The notes below the pieces were generated by a model, which saw nothing but the letters and a program-made list of their open reading frames with translations, was not told the origin of the DNA and did no database searches. Of a stretch of DNA of 64,000 bases, positions 15,511 through 19,904 are shown piece after piece. Within the stretch, counting starts at the first letter, position 1, and each line of letters starts with the position of its first letter. Position numbers and translations under genes: made by a program. Source of the stretch: Candidatus Algichlamydia australiensis (GTDB lineage: Bacteria > Chlamydiota > Chlamydiia > Chlamydiales > JAJFMI01); assembly GCA_033977065.1 (NCBI GenBank), contig JAXCHI010000004.1, forward strand, positions 92,724 to 156,723, read 5' to 3'.

Positions 15511-15840
15511 ATGGGAGAGATGGTAGGAGATGGTGCAAAATTTACTTGCACGCTCTGCGATTCAGAAATTGAACTTGAAGTTTCCGAATCATCTACAACA
15601 GGAAGTGGTAAAAAAATCGCTACCGAGTCAAACCACAAATTCATACCCGCACCCTTATGCAAAATAGTTCCCCAGTCACCACCTCCATGCGCCCCTGCTG
15701 TTGCTATTACTGACCCAGGACAATCGCCAGTTAGCATTGATGGGAGCCAGGCTTTAGGAAAAGAGTGTCAAGGAGTATGTATGCGCGGGGGTTCGCTAGC
15801 TCTTTCGGACCCGGCTCAGGAAGTTTTTCAGCATAATTGA
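15511..15840 (+). CDS. PAAR-like spike-tip protein, DUF4280 family
   Basis: 109 aa and Cys-rich, with a DUF4280-like layout: GAKFTCTLC...IELEV, then PLCKIV...PPPCAPAVA...SPVSIDGSQAL...CQGVCMRGGSLAL. It lies inside a T6SS operon. Confidence 0.65.
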   Translation: MGEMVGDGAKFTCTLCDSEIELEVSESSTTGSGKKIATESNHKFIPAPLCKIVPQSPPPCAPAVAITDPGQSPVSIDGSQALGKECQGVCMRGGSLALSDPAQEVFQHN

Positions 15841-15878
15841 TGTAGTAAGCAGAATAAGTGCAATTTTAGGAGGAAAAG

Positions 15879-18800
15879 ATGGCAGTAGATGGAAGCGGAG
15901 GGATGAATCTGGGAGGAAGTTTTCCTAGTTCCGATAGCTCAAAGGCAACATTTAAGCAGCTTACAAGCGGGGTTTTTAAGGCTCAGGTTGCGGATTGGAG
16001 TGATAGATTAAGTTGGCATGAGAAGCAGAAAGAAAATAGAAATCTGTTAAAAGCAGCGATTACTGTTGATACAGCTCTATTTTCAATCGTTTTTGCTCAC
16101 GCATGTACACTTTTTAAAAAAGATGATGCAAGATCCGGGAAGATCACTGCTTTAGTCTATTTAGCTGCTCGGGTCTCACTTTTTTACTCAGCGGCCCACC
16201 TTCTTTTTGTGCAATTAGGCCTTAGAATCTTAGAGGGTAAAAAACCAGAAACTAAGAAAGATTTAAGTTCACAAGAAACACTTCTAGAAATTGCTGGGTG
16301 GCTGTTTTCTGGAGTACATTTTTATAATCACTATCGCACCCCAGTTATCGATTCAAAAATCAAAATTCTCAAAGATGCCACAAATGAAGTTGAGCAACTA
16401 TCCTTTCGCGTTGATACGGTCTATCATCGATTTGCAATAGTCATGAAACAGCTTGCGGAAAAAATAGGGGGTAGTAAGGAGCTTGCTACGATTAGTAGAG
16501 AAATTAAAAAATTAAAGCTCCCTGAAAAAGAAGAAAAGATTTTGGAATCTAATATTGATGCAATTGTCAATTGTGATGCAGAAGGAAAGAGTGCTGAACT
16601 GTTCGCGAGATTTTCTGCTGAATTTAGTGAAGAAAGGGCAGACGTAGGTGATGTTGTTCTCAGGTCTGCGGATATAGAAGAAGTAAAAGCAAACCTATTG
16701 ACAATTGCTAAGAAAAATAAAACAGGTTTTCAAAATTCCTTAGAGAGTGCCGTTAAAGTAGGTGATAGAGAGTTTATCTCTGATTTCTTTGCATTAGGAG
16801 ATGAGTACATCGCGCTTATAGATCTGCGCAAACTTTTGATTTTAGCGATTGAAAGTAGCCAGAAAGAAGTTGTAGGAGTTCTCGTTGAAAGAAATATTAA
16901 AGAGCTTGCTAAATTGAGTGGAACTGCATATACAAAGCTCGCACACGAGCATAATGAGGGAGATATTTTAAAGACACTTGTATCAGGTGGATTTGAAAGA
17001 GAGGAAAGTTTGCTTTCTGAGGTTGTAAGAGATGGAACGGTCGAAGATGTAAGCAACCTTCTTGATGCTCATGAAAATAAGGAAGCAACTCAAACTCCCC
17101 AAGAACTTCAGCAAGCGCTTATAAGTGCAATTAAGAGTGGTAAAAAGGAAGCTGTTGAAAATCTCTTAAAAGTAGGAGTCTCATGTACTGAAAAATGTTT
17201 TGAAGAAGAAAAAACACCGCTAATGTTTGCGATTGATGAGGGTCTAACAGAAATCGCATCAATATTAATTCCTGAGTATTCAAAAGAAGATCGTAATAAA
17301 GTAGATAAAAGTGTAGAAACAGCTCTTTTTAAAGCAGTGAAAAAGGGAGAGGAACAAACAGTTAAAGATCTTTTATTAGATAAAGATAAAAAAGCTTCAT
17401 TATGCATAAAATGTGGAGAAAATGAAGAGACACCTCTTATATTCGCGATTCGAAAGGGTAATCTCTCTACCGCAGAAATATTAATTGAAAATAGTTCTGA
17501 GGAAGATCTTCGCACGACTGATAAAGCTAATCAAACTGCACTTTACTATGCAGAAAAGGGTAAATATAAAACCATAGTTGAAAAAATTGTAGGTAAATGG
17601 GGAGATCCAGTTAAGGCTGATTATGAAAACCAGAAAACAACTTTGACAAAAGCAATTGTTGAAAAAAAATTTCTTGAGGCAGAAGCTCTTATTGGGAAAT
17701 TCGATCATGAACAAGTTGACATAGGCAATCCAGGAGAGAGAGCTTTAGATTACTTGTTGGCATGTGGAGATAAAGCAGAAGCATGCATGCAAAAATTCTA
17801 TGAGGAATATCATGGGGACTTATCAACAGATGACATGGTACTGATTCTTTTTTGGTTTATGAAAAGAGATAGTGATGTCTCTCGTAAGTTTGCCGCTGAG
17901 ACTATTTTCCTAGAAGCTAATAAGAAAGAGAATTTTTTAAATGTAGTTCAATATTTGCTTGAGGATGCTACGAAAGGAATTTCTGAAGAAGAAACAGTAG
18001 AATACTTAGATTGGGTAGCTCGAAGAGGAAACACAGATGTTATCAGAACTTGGTTAAATATGTTAGGAATCTCTGCAATTCCCCAAAAGAAAAAACTTCT
18101 TAATTGGCTTAATTTTGCAATTCAACAAGGGAATCTCGATTTAACTAAATACTATTTAGAAAAAATTAGAACTGATGAAAACCAGATACTTGAAAATAGA
18201 GATTTAACAGATCTTGGTGAAGAAAATATCAAAAACATTAGAAGGTCTCGTAGAAATTGGGAGAAGAAAAAAGGAGAGAATCAATGGCTCTTTGTTGAAG
18301 CTCATTTAAATGCTATTGAGAAGGGAGAGCAGGAATTATTGGATATTGTTCGAGAGTATAGTGGCATTCAAGAGAGTAAAGAGGGCAACAAGTATGTTGA
18401 AGAGTTGGTATGGCTCATTAAAAGATTTTCTGAAGGAGCAGAACAGGCTCAACCGATGATTACACAAATTCTAAACGAACATCCTAGTGCAATGAATTGT
18501 CTTTGCAATGATGGGTTGACAGCTCTCATGCATGCAAACACTCTGTTAAAAGATGGTAGTCTTTCAAATTTTTTAGAGTATGATGGATTAGATTTATACA
18601 CGCTCGACTTTGAAGGAATTCCACTTTTAGGCCATGCGGTCCGTGGAGGTAAAGAGAAGAATATAGAAGTTGTTTTTTCTTATTGCCAATCTGATTTGGA
18701 AAGATCTTTGGCTATTGCAAAAGAGACAGAAGGAGTAGATTCCAATATTGTTAATACTTTTTTAAATTTGGTAAAAGAGAAAACGCAGGGGGGTGAAGGG

Positions 18801-19904
18801 ATGTCGGTTGATTCACCGTTAGTTCATGCGGCTGGTGCTGGTAATTGGGGTAAGGTAAAAGAGCTTCTTAAGAGGCATCAAGATTCTTTAAGGCTAGCGC
18901 TTATACTAGCAACAACTTCAACGAGGATTCCAAAACATATTCTCGATTTAATTGAAGAGGAGCTTATACAAGCGGACTTTGATGTAAGAGATGATTACAG
19001 GACTTTCTTGCAGTGGGCTGTTGAAGCAGGCTCTTTTAGGTGTGTCACAAGCATATTAAGTAGGCTAAAAGTCGATGACCCTGCCGTTCATGGGGTTTTG
19101 AAAACAAGCTGGGAATCCGGAGATCGAGCAATTTTTCAGTGCTGTCTCTTCCATTCAAACTCTCAAAAGTTGTACCAAGATTATTTAATGAAAGGTGCAG
19201 AAAGAGGAGATCAGGAGCTAGTTAGGCAAATTGTAGGCAGTCGCGATCCTAAAGTAAAAGATATATCAAAAAAAATTGCTTTGTTTTGTGCTTGGGAAGA
19301 AGGGCATAAAGCCATTGCCAAATATTTAAGTACCTCTCTTGGAGGGGATTTTGGAAACAATTCTAAGAGGAGGACTTTTGTTGAGTATGCTGCATTGTAC
19401 CAGCTCTTTGGTATGATAGATATGACGATGAGATCACTTACAAATAAAGGAAAAAGAAGAGATTGTGTTGTGTACGCTGCCCGTTATGGAAATGAACAAC
19501 TTTTAAAAGAGTTAGAAAAACTATGGAGTTTTTCAAAGGAGTCACAAACTCTTTCTAAAGGCTTGGAAACAGCTATTTTGAATCAACATTTGCCTATAGT
19601 CGAATATTTTTTAGAGTTAGGAGCAGTTCCTGAAGATAAGTGGATTGAGTATGCGCTCCTACTACAGGATTTAGACATGGCAGTTATGCTTGCGGATAAG
19701 AGCAGTTATGAAAATCTTGAAGCTTACTTAGAAGTTAAAAAAACTCAAACTGAAAAAGCAACTAGTAAAATTAAAAAAGATTTTGATGGTTTAATTATGG
19801 AGGAAGAAAAAGTGAAAATCGAAAGAAAAGGAACTTTAAGGCTTGCATTGATGGATTTCTTTAAAGATGATCTTGGAAAAAAAGCGAAGAAGAATAAGGG
19901 CTAA
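15879..19904 (+). CDS. giant ankyrin-repeat protein with N-terminal bilobed hydrophobic domain (effector candidate)
   Basis: 1341 aa. Two adjacent hydrophobic helices lie near residues 60-115 (AAITVDTALFSIVFAHACTLF / ITALVYLAARVSLFYSAAHLLFVQLGL). Multiple ankyrin-type repeats are present (e.g. TPLMFAIDEGLTEIASILI, TPLIFAIRKGNLSTAEILIEN, SPLVHAAGAGNWGKVKELLK). A basic Lys-rich tail ends the protein. Confidence 0.85.
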   Translation: MAVDGSGGMNLGGSFPSSDSSKATFKQLTSGVFKAQVADWSDRLSWHEKQKENRNLLKAAITVDTALFSIVFAHACTLFKKDDARSGKITALVYLAARVSLFYSAAHLLFVQLGLRILEGKKPETKKDLSSQETLLEIAGWLFSGVHFYNHYRTPVIDSKIKILKDATNEVEQLSFRVDTVYHRFAIVMKQLAEKIGGSKELATISREIKKLKLPEKEEKILESNIDAIVNCDAEGKSAELFARFSAEFSEERADVGDVVLRSADIEEVKANLLTIAKKNKTGFQNSLESAVKVGDREFISDFFALGDEYIALIDLRKLLILAIESSQKEVVGVLVERNIKELAKLSGTAYTKLAHEHNEGDILKTLVSGGFEREESLLSEVVRDGTVEDVSNLLDAHENKEATQTPQELQQALISAIKSGKKEAVENLLKVGVSCTEKCFEEEKTPLMFAIDEGLTEIASILIPEYSKEDRNKVDKSVETALFKAVKKGEEQTVKDLLLDKDKKASLCIKCGENEETPLIFAIRKGNLSTAEILIENSSEEDLRTTDKANQTALYYAEKGKYKTIVEKIVGKWGDPVKADYENQKTTLTKAIVEKKFLEAEALIGKFDHEQVDIGNPGERALDYLLACGDKAEACMQKFYEEYHGDLSTDDMVLILFWFMKRDSDVSRKFAAETIFLEANKKENFLNVVQYLLEDATKGISEEETVEYLDWVARRGNTDVIRTWLNMLGISAIPQKKKLLNWLNFAIQQGNLDLTKYYLEKIRTDENQILENRDLTDLGEENIKNIRRSRRNWEKKKGENQWLFVEAHLNAIEKGEQELLDIVREYSGIQESKEGNKYVEELVWLIKRFSEGAEQAQPMITQILNEHPSAMNCLCNDGLTALMHANTLLKDGSLSNFLEYDGLDLYTLDFEGIPLLGHAVRGGKEKNIEVVFSYCQSDLERSLAIAKETEGVDSNIVNTFLNLVKEKTQGGEGMSVDSPLVHAAGAGNWGKVKELLKRHQDSLRLALILATTSTRIPKHILDLIEEELIQADFDVRDDYRTFLQWAVEAGSFRCVTSILSRLKVDDPAVHGVLKTSWESGDRAIFQCCLFHSNSQKLYQDYLMKGAERGDQELVRQIVGSRDPKVKDISKKIALFCAWEEGHKAIAKYLSTSLGGDFGNNSKRRTFVEYAALYQLFGMIDMTMRSLTNKGKRRDCVVYAARYGNEQLLKELEKLWSFSKESQTLSKGLETAILNQHLPIVEYFLELGAVPEDKWIEYALLLQDLDMAVMLADKSSYENLEAYLEVKKTQTEKATSKIKKDFDGLIMEEEKVKIERKGTLRLALMDFFKDDLGKKAKKNKG

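Follow-up and report, generated by a model that had tools for sequence, protein, structure and literature searches.

A fast-evolving ankyrin-repeat protein with a partly Inc-like hairpin, encoded in a type VI secretion cluster of Candidatus Algichlamydia australiensis

The tip gene and the ankyrin gene

'Candidatus Algichlamydia australiensis' is represented by a metagenome-assembled genome (MAG) belonging to Simkaniaceae and forms single-cell inclusions within the dinoflagellate Cladocopium (PMC11317633); the amoebae which the original prediction on this DNA had taken as host have to be replaced accordingly. The window, a stretch of 64,000 nucleotides (nt) of contig JAXCHI010000004.1 which was analysed as a whole, contains from position 10017 to 33843 what by its gene content is a complete and previously undescribed type VI secretion system (T6SS) cluster of this bacterium. 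In one of the operons of this cluster a gene for a PAAR-like spike-tip protein of the DUF4280 family (109 amino acids, 15511–15840, plus strand) is followed, after a spacer of 38 nt (15841–15878, plus strand), by the operon's last gene, which encodes an ankyrin-repeat protein of 1341 amino acids (15879–19904, plus strand). This arrangement had been the starting point of the original prediction and was found as described. The publication on the genome reports a full type III secretion system (T3SS), a type IV secretion system (T4SS) located on a plasmid, as well as 12 ankyrin proteins in 1.8 Mb, and the terms 'T6SS' and 'type VI' occur nowhere in its text (PMC11317633). A description of a chlamydial T6SS was not found in the literature searched either, which does not prove that none exists.

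The DUF4280 protein matches the Pfam family PF14107 with 33.5 bits against a gathering cut-off of 26.3 (E 6.9e-8, profile positions 2–109 of 109) and contains all of the family-defining cysteines (C13, C50, C60, and C90). In 11 members of the family C13, C50, and C90 are found without exception and C60 almost without exception. Four conserved metal-binding cysteines are the property by which PAAR-like proteins were recognised by Rigard et al. 2016 (PMC5014421). The gene is flanked by those for TssM, IglE, and the conserved protein p548 upstream and by those for DotU, TssF, and further T6SS components downstream, and its product is to be regarded as a genuine PAAR-like tip protein.

The ankyrin gene starts with an ATG which is preceded at a distance of 5 nt by the sequence AGGAGG. 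Its product opens with a serine- and glycine-rich, probably disordered N-terminus (residues 1–55, 15879–16043, plus strand), a candidate secretion signal, which is followed by a pair of hydrophobic helices. A clear block of ankyrin repeats is located at residues ~376–600 (17004–17678, plus strand), where Pfam families Ank_2, Ank_4, and Ank_5 as well as ankyrin and DARPin entries of the PDB are matched. These repeats, which the original prediction had called eukaryote-like, give an Ank_2 match (E 9e-45, 151.6 bits in 4 stretches) and PDB ankyrin matches of up to E 5e-20 over residues ~380–600; further repeats, ankyrin-like but degenerate, are located at about residues 740 and 1225. A catalytic domain was not detectable in the 1341 residues. 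The AlphaFold2 (AF2) model of residues 1–1200, calculated from the single sequence, is all-alpha and of low confidence, with a mean predicted local distance difference test score (pLDDT) of 43.

The database copy of the protein (P0090, 1231 amino acids) begins at a GTG at codon 111 (nt 16209, inside helix 2) and therefore lacks the hydrophobic pair. The long form, beginning at ATG 15879, is better supported. This ATG has a perfect Shine-Dalgarno sequence whereas the GTG has none, and the nearest in-frame stop lies 4 codons upstream of it. The GC content at third codon positions is 0.32 in codons 1–110, which is close to the 0.26 of the remaining gene and unlike the 0.50 and 0.45 of the off-frames. 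The orthologue in locus L002 of the sister lineage shares the N-terminal architecture, which supports the long form as well.

The operon context supports a coupling of the ankyrin gene to the T6SS, the gap of 38 nt being short, the Shine-Dalgarno sequence strong, and no promoter- or terminator-like site being found on the plus strand between 15072 and 17414. For independent transcription, which the original prediction had regarded as speaking against its proposal, there was thus no promoter-like site in or near the gap, and the gene lies in the cluster on the same strand as its neighbours. It is probably co-transcribed with the genes of the T6SS membrane complex and tip. No gene follows on the same strand, as the stop codon (19904) lies immediately beside the end of the tssB...dotU operon, which is convergent, and an open reading frame (ORF) of 90 amino acids (19919–20191, plus strand), which lies over a conserved gene of the minus strand, is probably spurious; the statement that no immunity-like gene follows was correct in this respect. 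A former fusion of the ankyrin gene to DUF4280 was considered and rejected, as the frames differ, the spacer contains stops in every frame, and the DNA homology to L002 ends at DUF4280.

The hydrophobic hairpin

Chlamydiae are textbook manipulators of their hosts by means of the T3SS and inclusion-membrane (Inc) proteins, and a closely spaced pair of hydrophobic helices such as that found here invites comparison with the latter. The pair, which had been predicted at residues ~60–115, was seen at residues 56–79 (helix 1, 16044–16115, plus strand) and 89–118 (helix 2, 16143–16232, plus strand), connected by the charged 9-residue loop KKDDARSGK (residues 80–88, 16116–16142, plus strand). Kyte-Doolittle averages over 19 residues peak at 1.67 for the segment starting at residue 61 and at 1.51 for that starting at 93, and the low-confidence AF2 model has helices at 53–77 and 88–118. 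It is the sole N-terminal hydrophobic pair of its kind among 47 proteins of the window, and its strength is modest. Crude Hessa sums amount to +4.3 kcal/mol for helix 1 and +3.4 kcal/mol for helix 2, to be compared with +4.3 for the soluble p548 and +4.8 for TssF on the one hand and with −2.1 and −0.9 for the anchors of DotU and p461 on the other. As these sums lie in the range of soluble proteins, the helices possibly do not span a membrane. A moderate hydrophobicity is, on the other hand, expected of a membrane protein which escapes the bacterial inner membrane before its export.

Dehoux et al. 2011 predicted Inc proteins by the presence of two transmembrane helices of 15–32 residues with a loop of <30 residues between them. 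The hairpin of the ankyrin protein, with helices of 24 and 30 residues and a loop of 9, falls within this geometry at a marginal hydrophobicity (Kyte-Doolittle 1.5–1.7), and the protein conforms to the Inc pattern also in being chlamydia-specific and in having ankyrin repeats only and no conserved prokaryotic enzyme domain. The loops of known Incs abound in P, G, N, S, and T and contain no K, R, D, or E (Dehoux et al. 2011), a rule followed neither by the loop of the window protein nor by that of its L002 counterpart (GRKPSKDK). From the Inc signature asserted in the original prediction the geometry of helices and loop length could be upheld, whereas the charged loop and the soluble-range Hessa sums do not agree with it. 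The resemblance to Incs thus appears to be partial, with a conserved hairpin architecture, marginal hydrophobicity, and a charged loop. Residues 2–26 contain 7 serines or threonines and 14 small or polar residues, by which the protein ranks joint first of the 47 on serine plus threonine (three ties) and first after a tiebreak on small or polar residues; as an indicator of a secretion signal this rank is weak.

Relatives of the two genes in other chlamydiae

For comparison 60 genome loci and several annotated contigs were used, the ORFs of which had been labelled by homology to the proteins of the window. Homologous clusters occur in many chlamydial MAGs of Parachlamydiaceae, Protochlamydia, Simkaniaceae, and Rhabdochlamydiaceae; clusters were noted in the loci numbered L002, L004, L005, L007–L023, L053, and L067–L069.

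The only relative of the ankyrin protein is a protein of L002, with 982 amino acids as called and 992 amino acids when read from an upstream TTG. The two are related with a phmmer E value of 7e-13 and are 32% identical over 124 amino acids, the rest being unalignable, whereas the core genes of the two clusters are 53–78% identical. Their N-termini are collinear, each consisting of a polar start, a helix, a charged loop, and a second helix with the motif R[VI]xL[FL]Y. The counterpart gene lies in the slot which the ankyrin gene has in the window, with the tip module on one side and the end of the DotU operon on the other. As no counterpart was found in ~18 other chlamydial T6SS loci, the ankyrin gene is probably not part of the machine. 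A word-indexed search of 5.8 billion proteins with residues 1–340 yielded no homologue, an exhaustive search of 1.84 billion representative proteins with the same residues yielded solely the protein itself (with the alternative start), and a metagenome scan seeded with the sole stretch which is conserved in both ankyrin proteins found no match. The gene is lineage-specific, rapidly diverging, and located in a variable slot. Large unlabelled proteins of the other T6SS loci were also checked as possible counterparts and turned out to be ClpB, autotransporters, a tRNA synthetase, and unrelated unknowns, none of them with an N-terminal hairpin; p386, a protein of the window with a weak ankyrin match, was rejected as a paralogue because it shows no significant similarity.

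The DUF4280 protein has closer relatives. It is 63% identical to residues 1–109 of a 270-amino acid protein of L002 in which DUF4280 is fused to Ntox28, and 42% identical to a protein of L004 in which it is fused to Tox-REase-9. Such C-terminal fusions carry Ntox28 (L002), Tox-REase-9 (L004), GIY-YIG (L008), or an unassigned domain (L017), with a conserved ...HD junction and a glycine-rich linker ahead of the fused domain, and small immunity-like ORFs lie 3' of DUF4280 in all four of these loci. The window protein stops at the fusion junction (…FQHN followed by the stop codon) and is a toxin-less form with no immunity gene; any payload encoded in the cluster must therefore be a separate protein. 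Where DUF4280 is short, the next gene encodes ClpB (L016), the core component IglI (L021), an unknown 403-amino acid protein (L053), or, in the window, the ankyrin protein. In ~18 related chlamydial T6SS loci the cargo of DUF4280 is the fused C-terminal nuclease and not the product of the next gene. The adjacency of DUF4280 and ankyrin genes in the window reflects the absence of a toxin/immunity cassette and is not a conserved pairing. In L002 this interval contains the DUF4280-Ntox28 toxin together with immunity-like genes and, besides these, the counterpart of the ankyrin gene, which marks it as a cargo region.

A recent truncation of the window DUF4280 with remnants of a cassette was rejected as an explanation, since tblastn found no remnant of the L002 toxin, of the 203-amino acid gene, or of DUF2251 anywhere in the window (E values of at least 0.98). 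A metagenome scan seeded with the DUF4280 core gave no match. The polymorphic DUF4280-nuclease tips with their immunity-like genes (DUF2251, DUF4304, and unknowns) are found at 15654–17927 in L002, 12594–14622 in L004, 3083–5887 in L008, and 19635–20819 in L017, and in L008 two such tip proteins are encoded in tandem. The presence of immunity genes implies that self- or kin-intoxication is a risk, an odd one for inclusion-dwelling bacteria. A Parachlamydia Tox-REase-9 'effector' had already been flagged in 2012 by Zhang et al. (PMC3482391).

The surrounding type VI secretion cluster

That the locus is a T6SS locus could be confirmed with Pfam and NCBIfam models, which recognise TssB, TssC, TssE, TssF, TssK, a TssG-like protein, DotU, a TssM-like protein, IglE, and IglI. 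The cluster is composed of three blocks. The first (10017–19904, plus strand) encodes the TssM-like protein, the IglE lipoprotein, p548, DUF4280, and the ankyrin protein. The second, convergent to it, runs on the minus strand from 29777 down to 19907 and encodes TssB, TssC, p213, TssK, TssE, p658, the IglI-family protein, TssF/IglH, DotU, and two small ORFs, and the third (29883–33843, plus strand) encodes p461, an autotransporter beta-domain protein, and a TssG/IglJ-like protein. The first gene of the ankyrin operon encodes the TssM/PdpB-like membrane-complex protein (10017–13451, plus strand), which has a weak match to Pfam IcmF_helical, 34 homologues in related T6SS loci, and 69% identity to the L002 copy. 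It is followed by the T6SS lipoprotein of IglE type, an analogue of TssJ (13448–13864, plus strand, Pfam IglE_N E 1.1e-12). For the TssG/IglJ-like protein p278 (33007–33843, plus strand) 44 homologues were counted in T6SS loci, and it matches IglJ weakly.

The operon from TssB to DotU proper comprises 20298–29777 on the minus strand. In it p213 (27013–27654) lies between TssC and TssK in the position of Hcp and has no sequence match in Pfam, NCBIfam, or PDB; p658 (23447–25423) is a conserved unknown protein with 60 homologues in related loci and likewise has no match in these three databases, even when a profile is used. VgrG and Hcp were not recognisable in the cluster by sequence search. Of the two small ORFs with which the convergent operon ends (67 and 61 amino acids, 19907–20292, minus strand) one is a short homologue (61 amino acids, 20107–20292, minus strand) of a conserved acidic protein of ~100 amino acids with a C-terminal LEELLD-like motif, which comes after DotU in nearly all related loci (30+); in the window this acidic ORF is followed by the lysine-rich ORF of 67 amino acids.

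Several components resemble those of Francisella. The TssA-like protein matches IglI_fam with 201 bits at a cut-off of 100, and TssF passes the IglH/TssF model only (90 bits, cut-off 75), while the IglE and IglJ models remain under their cut-offs with 59 bits versus 75 and 21 bits versus 100, respectively, and PdpA and IglC have no match among the T6SS proteins of the window. With the canonical T6SSi equivalogs of NCBIfam, TssB, TssC, and TssK score above the cut-offs and TssE below. The T6SSii has been described as exclusive to Francisella in the recent literature (PMC12955703), and to apply this label to the chlamydial system would be an over-reach. As TssB, TssC, and TssK match canonical T6SSi models, the system is best seen as a mosaic which is Francisella-like in several parts.

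Directly upstream of DUF4280 and downstream of IglE the conserved T6SS-associated protein p548 is encoded (13861–15507, plus strand), in the position of Francisella iglF. It has 42 homologues in T6SS loci across phyla. The profile of this family matches adenylation domains and acetyl-CoA synthetase in the PDB with E values from 3e-14 to 6e-13, both N- and C-domains being covered, by which p548 is assigned to the adenylate-forming (ANL) superfamily (acyl-CoA synthetase or nonribosomal peptide synthetase A-domain), from which it has diverged. It may be a pseudoenzyme, as the P-loop SGTTGxPKG is not evident in the family consensus. To our knowledge no ANL-like core component of any T6SS is known. 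The adjacency of p548 and DUF4280 is kept in the window, L002, L023, and L053. The Francisella pair iglF-iglG has the same gene order and its products have been shown to interact (PMC5014421).

A ClpB, by analogy with Francisella a candidate ATPase for recycling of the sheath, is encoded at 1752–4328 on the minus strand, 5.7 kb from the T6SS cluster; it scores 1199 bits with the NCBIfam model for ClpB and 842 bits with that for ClpV. ClpB lies beside or near a T6SS cluster in four chlamydial genomes, namely in the window, at 5381–7942 in L016, where it is located immediately 3' of DUF4280, at 9403–12012 in L011, and at 1–127 in L069. No ClpV is present with these clusters, the ClpB model outscoring the ClpV model. 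The linkage parallels Francisella, whose ClpB disassembles the sheath.

Distribution and neighbourhood

For TssF 88 homologues were collected, mostly from chlamydial MAGs at 41–49% identity, with one sister lineage at 76%. Remoter relatives, with 22–31% identity, belong to Methylococcaceae, Myxococcales, Desulfobacterales, and Planctomycetota.

The T3SS genes of the window are located on the minus strand at 38097–43439 (sctW/copN 38097–39251, sctV 40231–42360, sctU 42357–43439), ~18–24 kb from the ankyrin gene. With the T3SS encoded nearby, the two secretion routes assumed in the original prediction are both available. The T6SS cluster adjoins a common block in the window (33955–43439) and in the distant chlamydial contig L069 (1–9886), the TssF proteins of which are 42% identical. 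Shared are a transglutaminase/TPR gene, GH77, a CesT-type chaperone (annotated in L069 only), and copN, after which sctV and sctU follow in the window. This indicates an old and conserved neighbourhood of T6SS and T3SS. Also near the T3SS genes another large lineage-type protein is encoded at 45653–48847; its 1064 amino acids include three DUF4116 repeats, and hydrophobic peaks are located in its interior at residues ~753–785.

The third block of the cluster begins with p461 (29883–31268, plus strand), which recurs in linkage with T6SS genes and contains a glycine-rich, strongly hydrophobic stretch at residues 378–401, LLVGGAIVCAATVGWVVVLGAGLL, with a Hessa sum of −0.87. Homologues are encoded in L002 (1375–2736), L010 and L012 (two each, as tandem pairs), and L017 (8607–9893). 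The protein also matches, weakly (E 0.008), the BTH_I2691 T6SS effector family of NCBIfam, and p461 could be a conserved membrane-active effector of the chlamydial T6SS. The next gene, for the autotransporter beta-domain protein (31335–33017, plus strand, Pfam Autotransporter E 1e-16), has equivalents which repeatedly adjoin the TssG/IglJ-like gene, in the window as well as in L016 (2740–4733), L018, L019, and L069 (12643–14896); this suggests a conserved outer-membrane partner of the chlamydial T6SS.

Directly upstream of the cluster an AbiEi/AbiEii type IV toxin-antitoxin pair is located (7032–8685), and beside it the 386-amino acid p386 (8682–9842, minus strand) is encoded divergently from tssM. 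In L004, which stems from an assembly labelled Verrucomicrobia (GCA_018240015.1), a 96-amino acid F-box protein is encoded at 17028–17318 within the T6SS cluster, a second eukaryote-like gene embedded in a chlamydial T6SS cluster.

The route of export

Since the ankyrin protein is lineage-specific, fast-evolving, eukaryote-like, dispensable for the machine, and encoded in a variable T6SS cargo region, it is probably a host-directed secreted protein. Which machine would export it is not decidable from sequence, a T3SS route of Inc type being nearly as likely as the T6SS. With this reservation the gene context tentatively favours the T6SS, at somewhat less than even chances. The protein would be loaded on the spike and exported into the host, where the helical hairpin (residues 56–118) could tether it to a host-derived membrane, that of the inclusion, and the ankyrin-like solenoid of ~1200 residues would face the host cytosol as a protein-binding scaffold.

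A number of observations weigh against T6SS export. The ORFs of the cluster were scanned with Pfam and NCBIfam families, and within these families neither an adaptor or chaperone gene (DUF4123, DUF2169, or DUF1795/Eag type) was found in the cluster nor a T6SS effector marker domain (MIX, FIX, and similar) in the ankyrin protein. In this family the gene downstream of DUF4280 is not systematically the cargo; the original premise that the gene after PAAR encodes its cargo failed here, as the cargo of the family is fused to DUF4280 and three immunity-like ORFs separate DUF4280 from the ankyrin counterpart in L002. Because the ankyrin family consists of two members from sister lineages only, its linkage to the T6SS would count effectively as one evolutionary event, and the chance that one of 12 ankyrin genes falls into a 24-kb cluster of a 1.8-Mb genome is by our own estimate roughly 15%. 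With p461 the locus has a rival candidate for an effector. Finally, a T3SS is at hand, and an N-terminal hairpin with a serine-rich N-terminus is the classic Inc pattern.

This last point leads to the strongest of the rival explanations, which is of only slightly lower probability: the protein may be an Inc-like substrate of the T3SS, exported by its serine/glycine-rich N-terminus and inserted with its hairpin into the inclusion membrane, its gene merely lying in a gap between convergent T6SS operons which is prone to recombination. The geometry and N-proximal position of the hairpin, the restriction to chlamydiae, the lack of a conserved prokaryotic domain, and the serine and threonine content of the first 25 residues all agree with this explanation. 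The size of the protein does so as well, as published putative Incs reach 1537 amino acids (Dehoux et al. 2011). It is further in line with the single-cell inclusion lifestyle and the complete T3SS of the bacterium (PMC11317633), with sctU, sctV, and sctW in the window, with the frequency of ankyrin proteins among predicted chlamydial effectors, and with the gap in L002, which has clearly acquired foreign cassettes. Against it speak the lysines, aspartates, and arginine of the loop and the marginal hydrophobicity, which does not exceed that of soluble proteins of the locus. The ankyrin gene has no T3S chaperone gene adjacent to it, is tightly packed in a T6SS operon without a promoter-like site of its own, and lies inside the T6SS cluster in both genomes which contain the family. 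Moreover, ~10% of the tested predicted Incs were without a functional T3S signal and several missed the inclusion membrane (Dehoux et al. 2011).

The protein might also not be secreted at all. It could act as an accessory of the T6SS at the inner membrane or in the cytoplasm, for example as a positioning or regulating scaffold, or the two helices could be the buried core of a soluble all-alpha protein. Membership in a T6SS operon, the soluble-range Hessa sums, a conserved arginine in helix 2 together with an aspartate in helix 1, and the generic protein-binding nature of ankyrin repeats fit such a role. It is considered improbable, however, as the machine does without the protein in all other chlamydial T6SS loci compared, and as a divergence far faster than that of every structural gene is unusual given fixed structural partners. 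Large ankyrin proteins of obligate intracellular bacteria are, furthermore, typically host-directed. Very improbable is a substrate of the plasmid-borne T4SS (PMC11317633) which is recognised via the C-terminus like the ankyrin effectors of Legionella and Coxiella: the lysine-rich C-terminus (…DLGKKAKKNKG), a glutamate cluster (MEEEK) ~40 residues from the end, and weak NCBIfam matches to Legionella Ank effectors point in this direction, but these matches (31–50 bits at cut-offs of 450–1400) cover the ankyrin repeats only, and the L002 counterpart has no basic C-terminal tail.

Returning to T6SS export, the complete picture of a T6SS which is turned towards the host and whose toxin-less tip carries a separate giant ankyrin protein with an Inc-like hairpin riding on the spike is in itself unlikely. 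If true, proteins of inclusion-membrane type would not be exclusive substrates of the T3SS, and a machine with Francisella-type parts would be present in Chlamydiota beside T3SS genes. In the lineage of Ca. Algichlamydia australiensis the ankyrin gene is the most concrete candidate for T6SS delivery, and it poses a testable question, namely whether a protein with a hairpin of Inc type is exported by a T6SS or a T3SS substrate is encoded in a T6SS operon. Either route bears on the division of labour between secretion systems in obligate intracellular bacteria. The nuclease tips and immunity genes of the relatives raise the additional question of whom an obligate intracellular bacterium would fight by means of a T6SS.

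Comparison with known systems

The closest parallel to the cluster as a whole is the T6SS of the Francisella pathogenicity island, with which it shares proteins of IglE, IglI, and IglH/TssF type and a ClpB, not a ClpV, nearby. It differs from this island in having no vgrG between iglE and p548 and in TssB, TssC, and TssK proteins which fit the canonical T6SSi models. As to the tip, DUF4280 proteins with four cysteines and the order tssM(pdpB)-iglE-[~550-amino acid gene]-DUF4280 are common to both, whereas the N-terminal alpha-helical extension by which IglG binds IglF is missing from the window DUF4280 (PMC5014421), and p548, a relative of the ANL superfamily, is like IglF by gene position.

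'Evolved' PAAR proteins carry polymorphic toxins (PMC3482391; Rigard et al. 2016), and the chlamydial clade of the window DUF4280 does the same with its Ntox28, Tox-REase-9, GIY-YIG, and unassigned C-termini. The window protein itself differs from these in having neither toxin nor immunity gene nor remnants of them. In the prePAAR/Eag effectors transmembrane domains, PAAR, and toxin are combined in one polypeptide, with a DUF1795 chaperone gene adjacent. A linkage to the T6SS and N-terminal hydrophobic helices beside a PAAR-type module are found in the window as well, but here the PAAR-like module and the hairpin are encoded by separate genes, no DUF1795 was detected, and the payload would be an ankyrin solenoid. 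With the chlamydial Incs the ankyrin protein has in common an N-proximal helix pair with a short loop, a polar serine-rich N-terminus, a large remainder which would face the cytosol, the restriction to chlamydiae, and fast evolution; it departs from them in its charged loop, its marginal hydrophobicity, and the location of its gene within a T6SS operon.

We know of no N-terminal hairpin in the Francisella proteins OpiB, PdpC, and PdpD. Sequence similarity of these to the window ankyrin protein was not detected, and OpiB, unlike the window protein, in which a catalytic domain could not be detected, contains a cysteine-protease domain. OpiB is an ankyrin-containing T6SS substrate (PMC7641602) and in this a precedent, and PdpC and PdpD are proteins of ~1300 amino acids which are secreted via the T6SS (PMC12955703). 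The window protein resembles the former in its ankyrin repeats and the latter two in its size and in being encoded in the cluster, and, should it indeed travel on the spike, it would resemble them also in its export by a T6SS.

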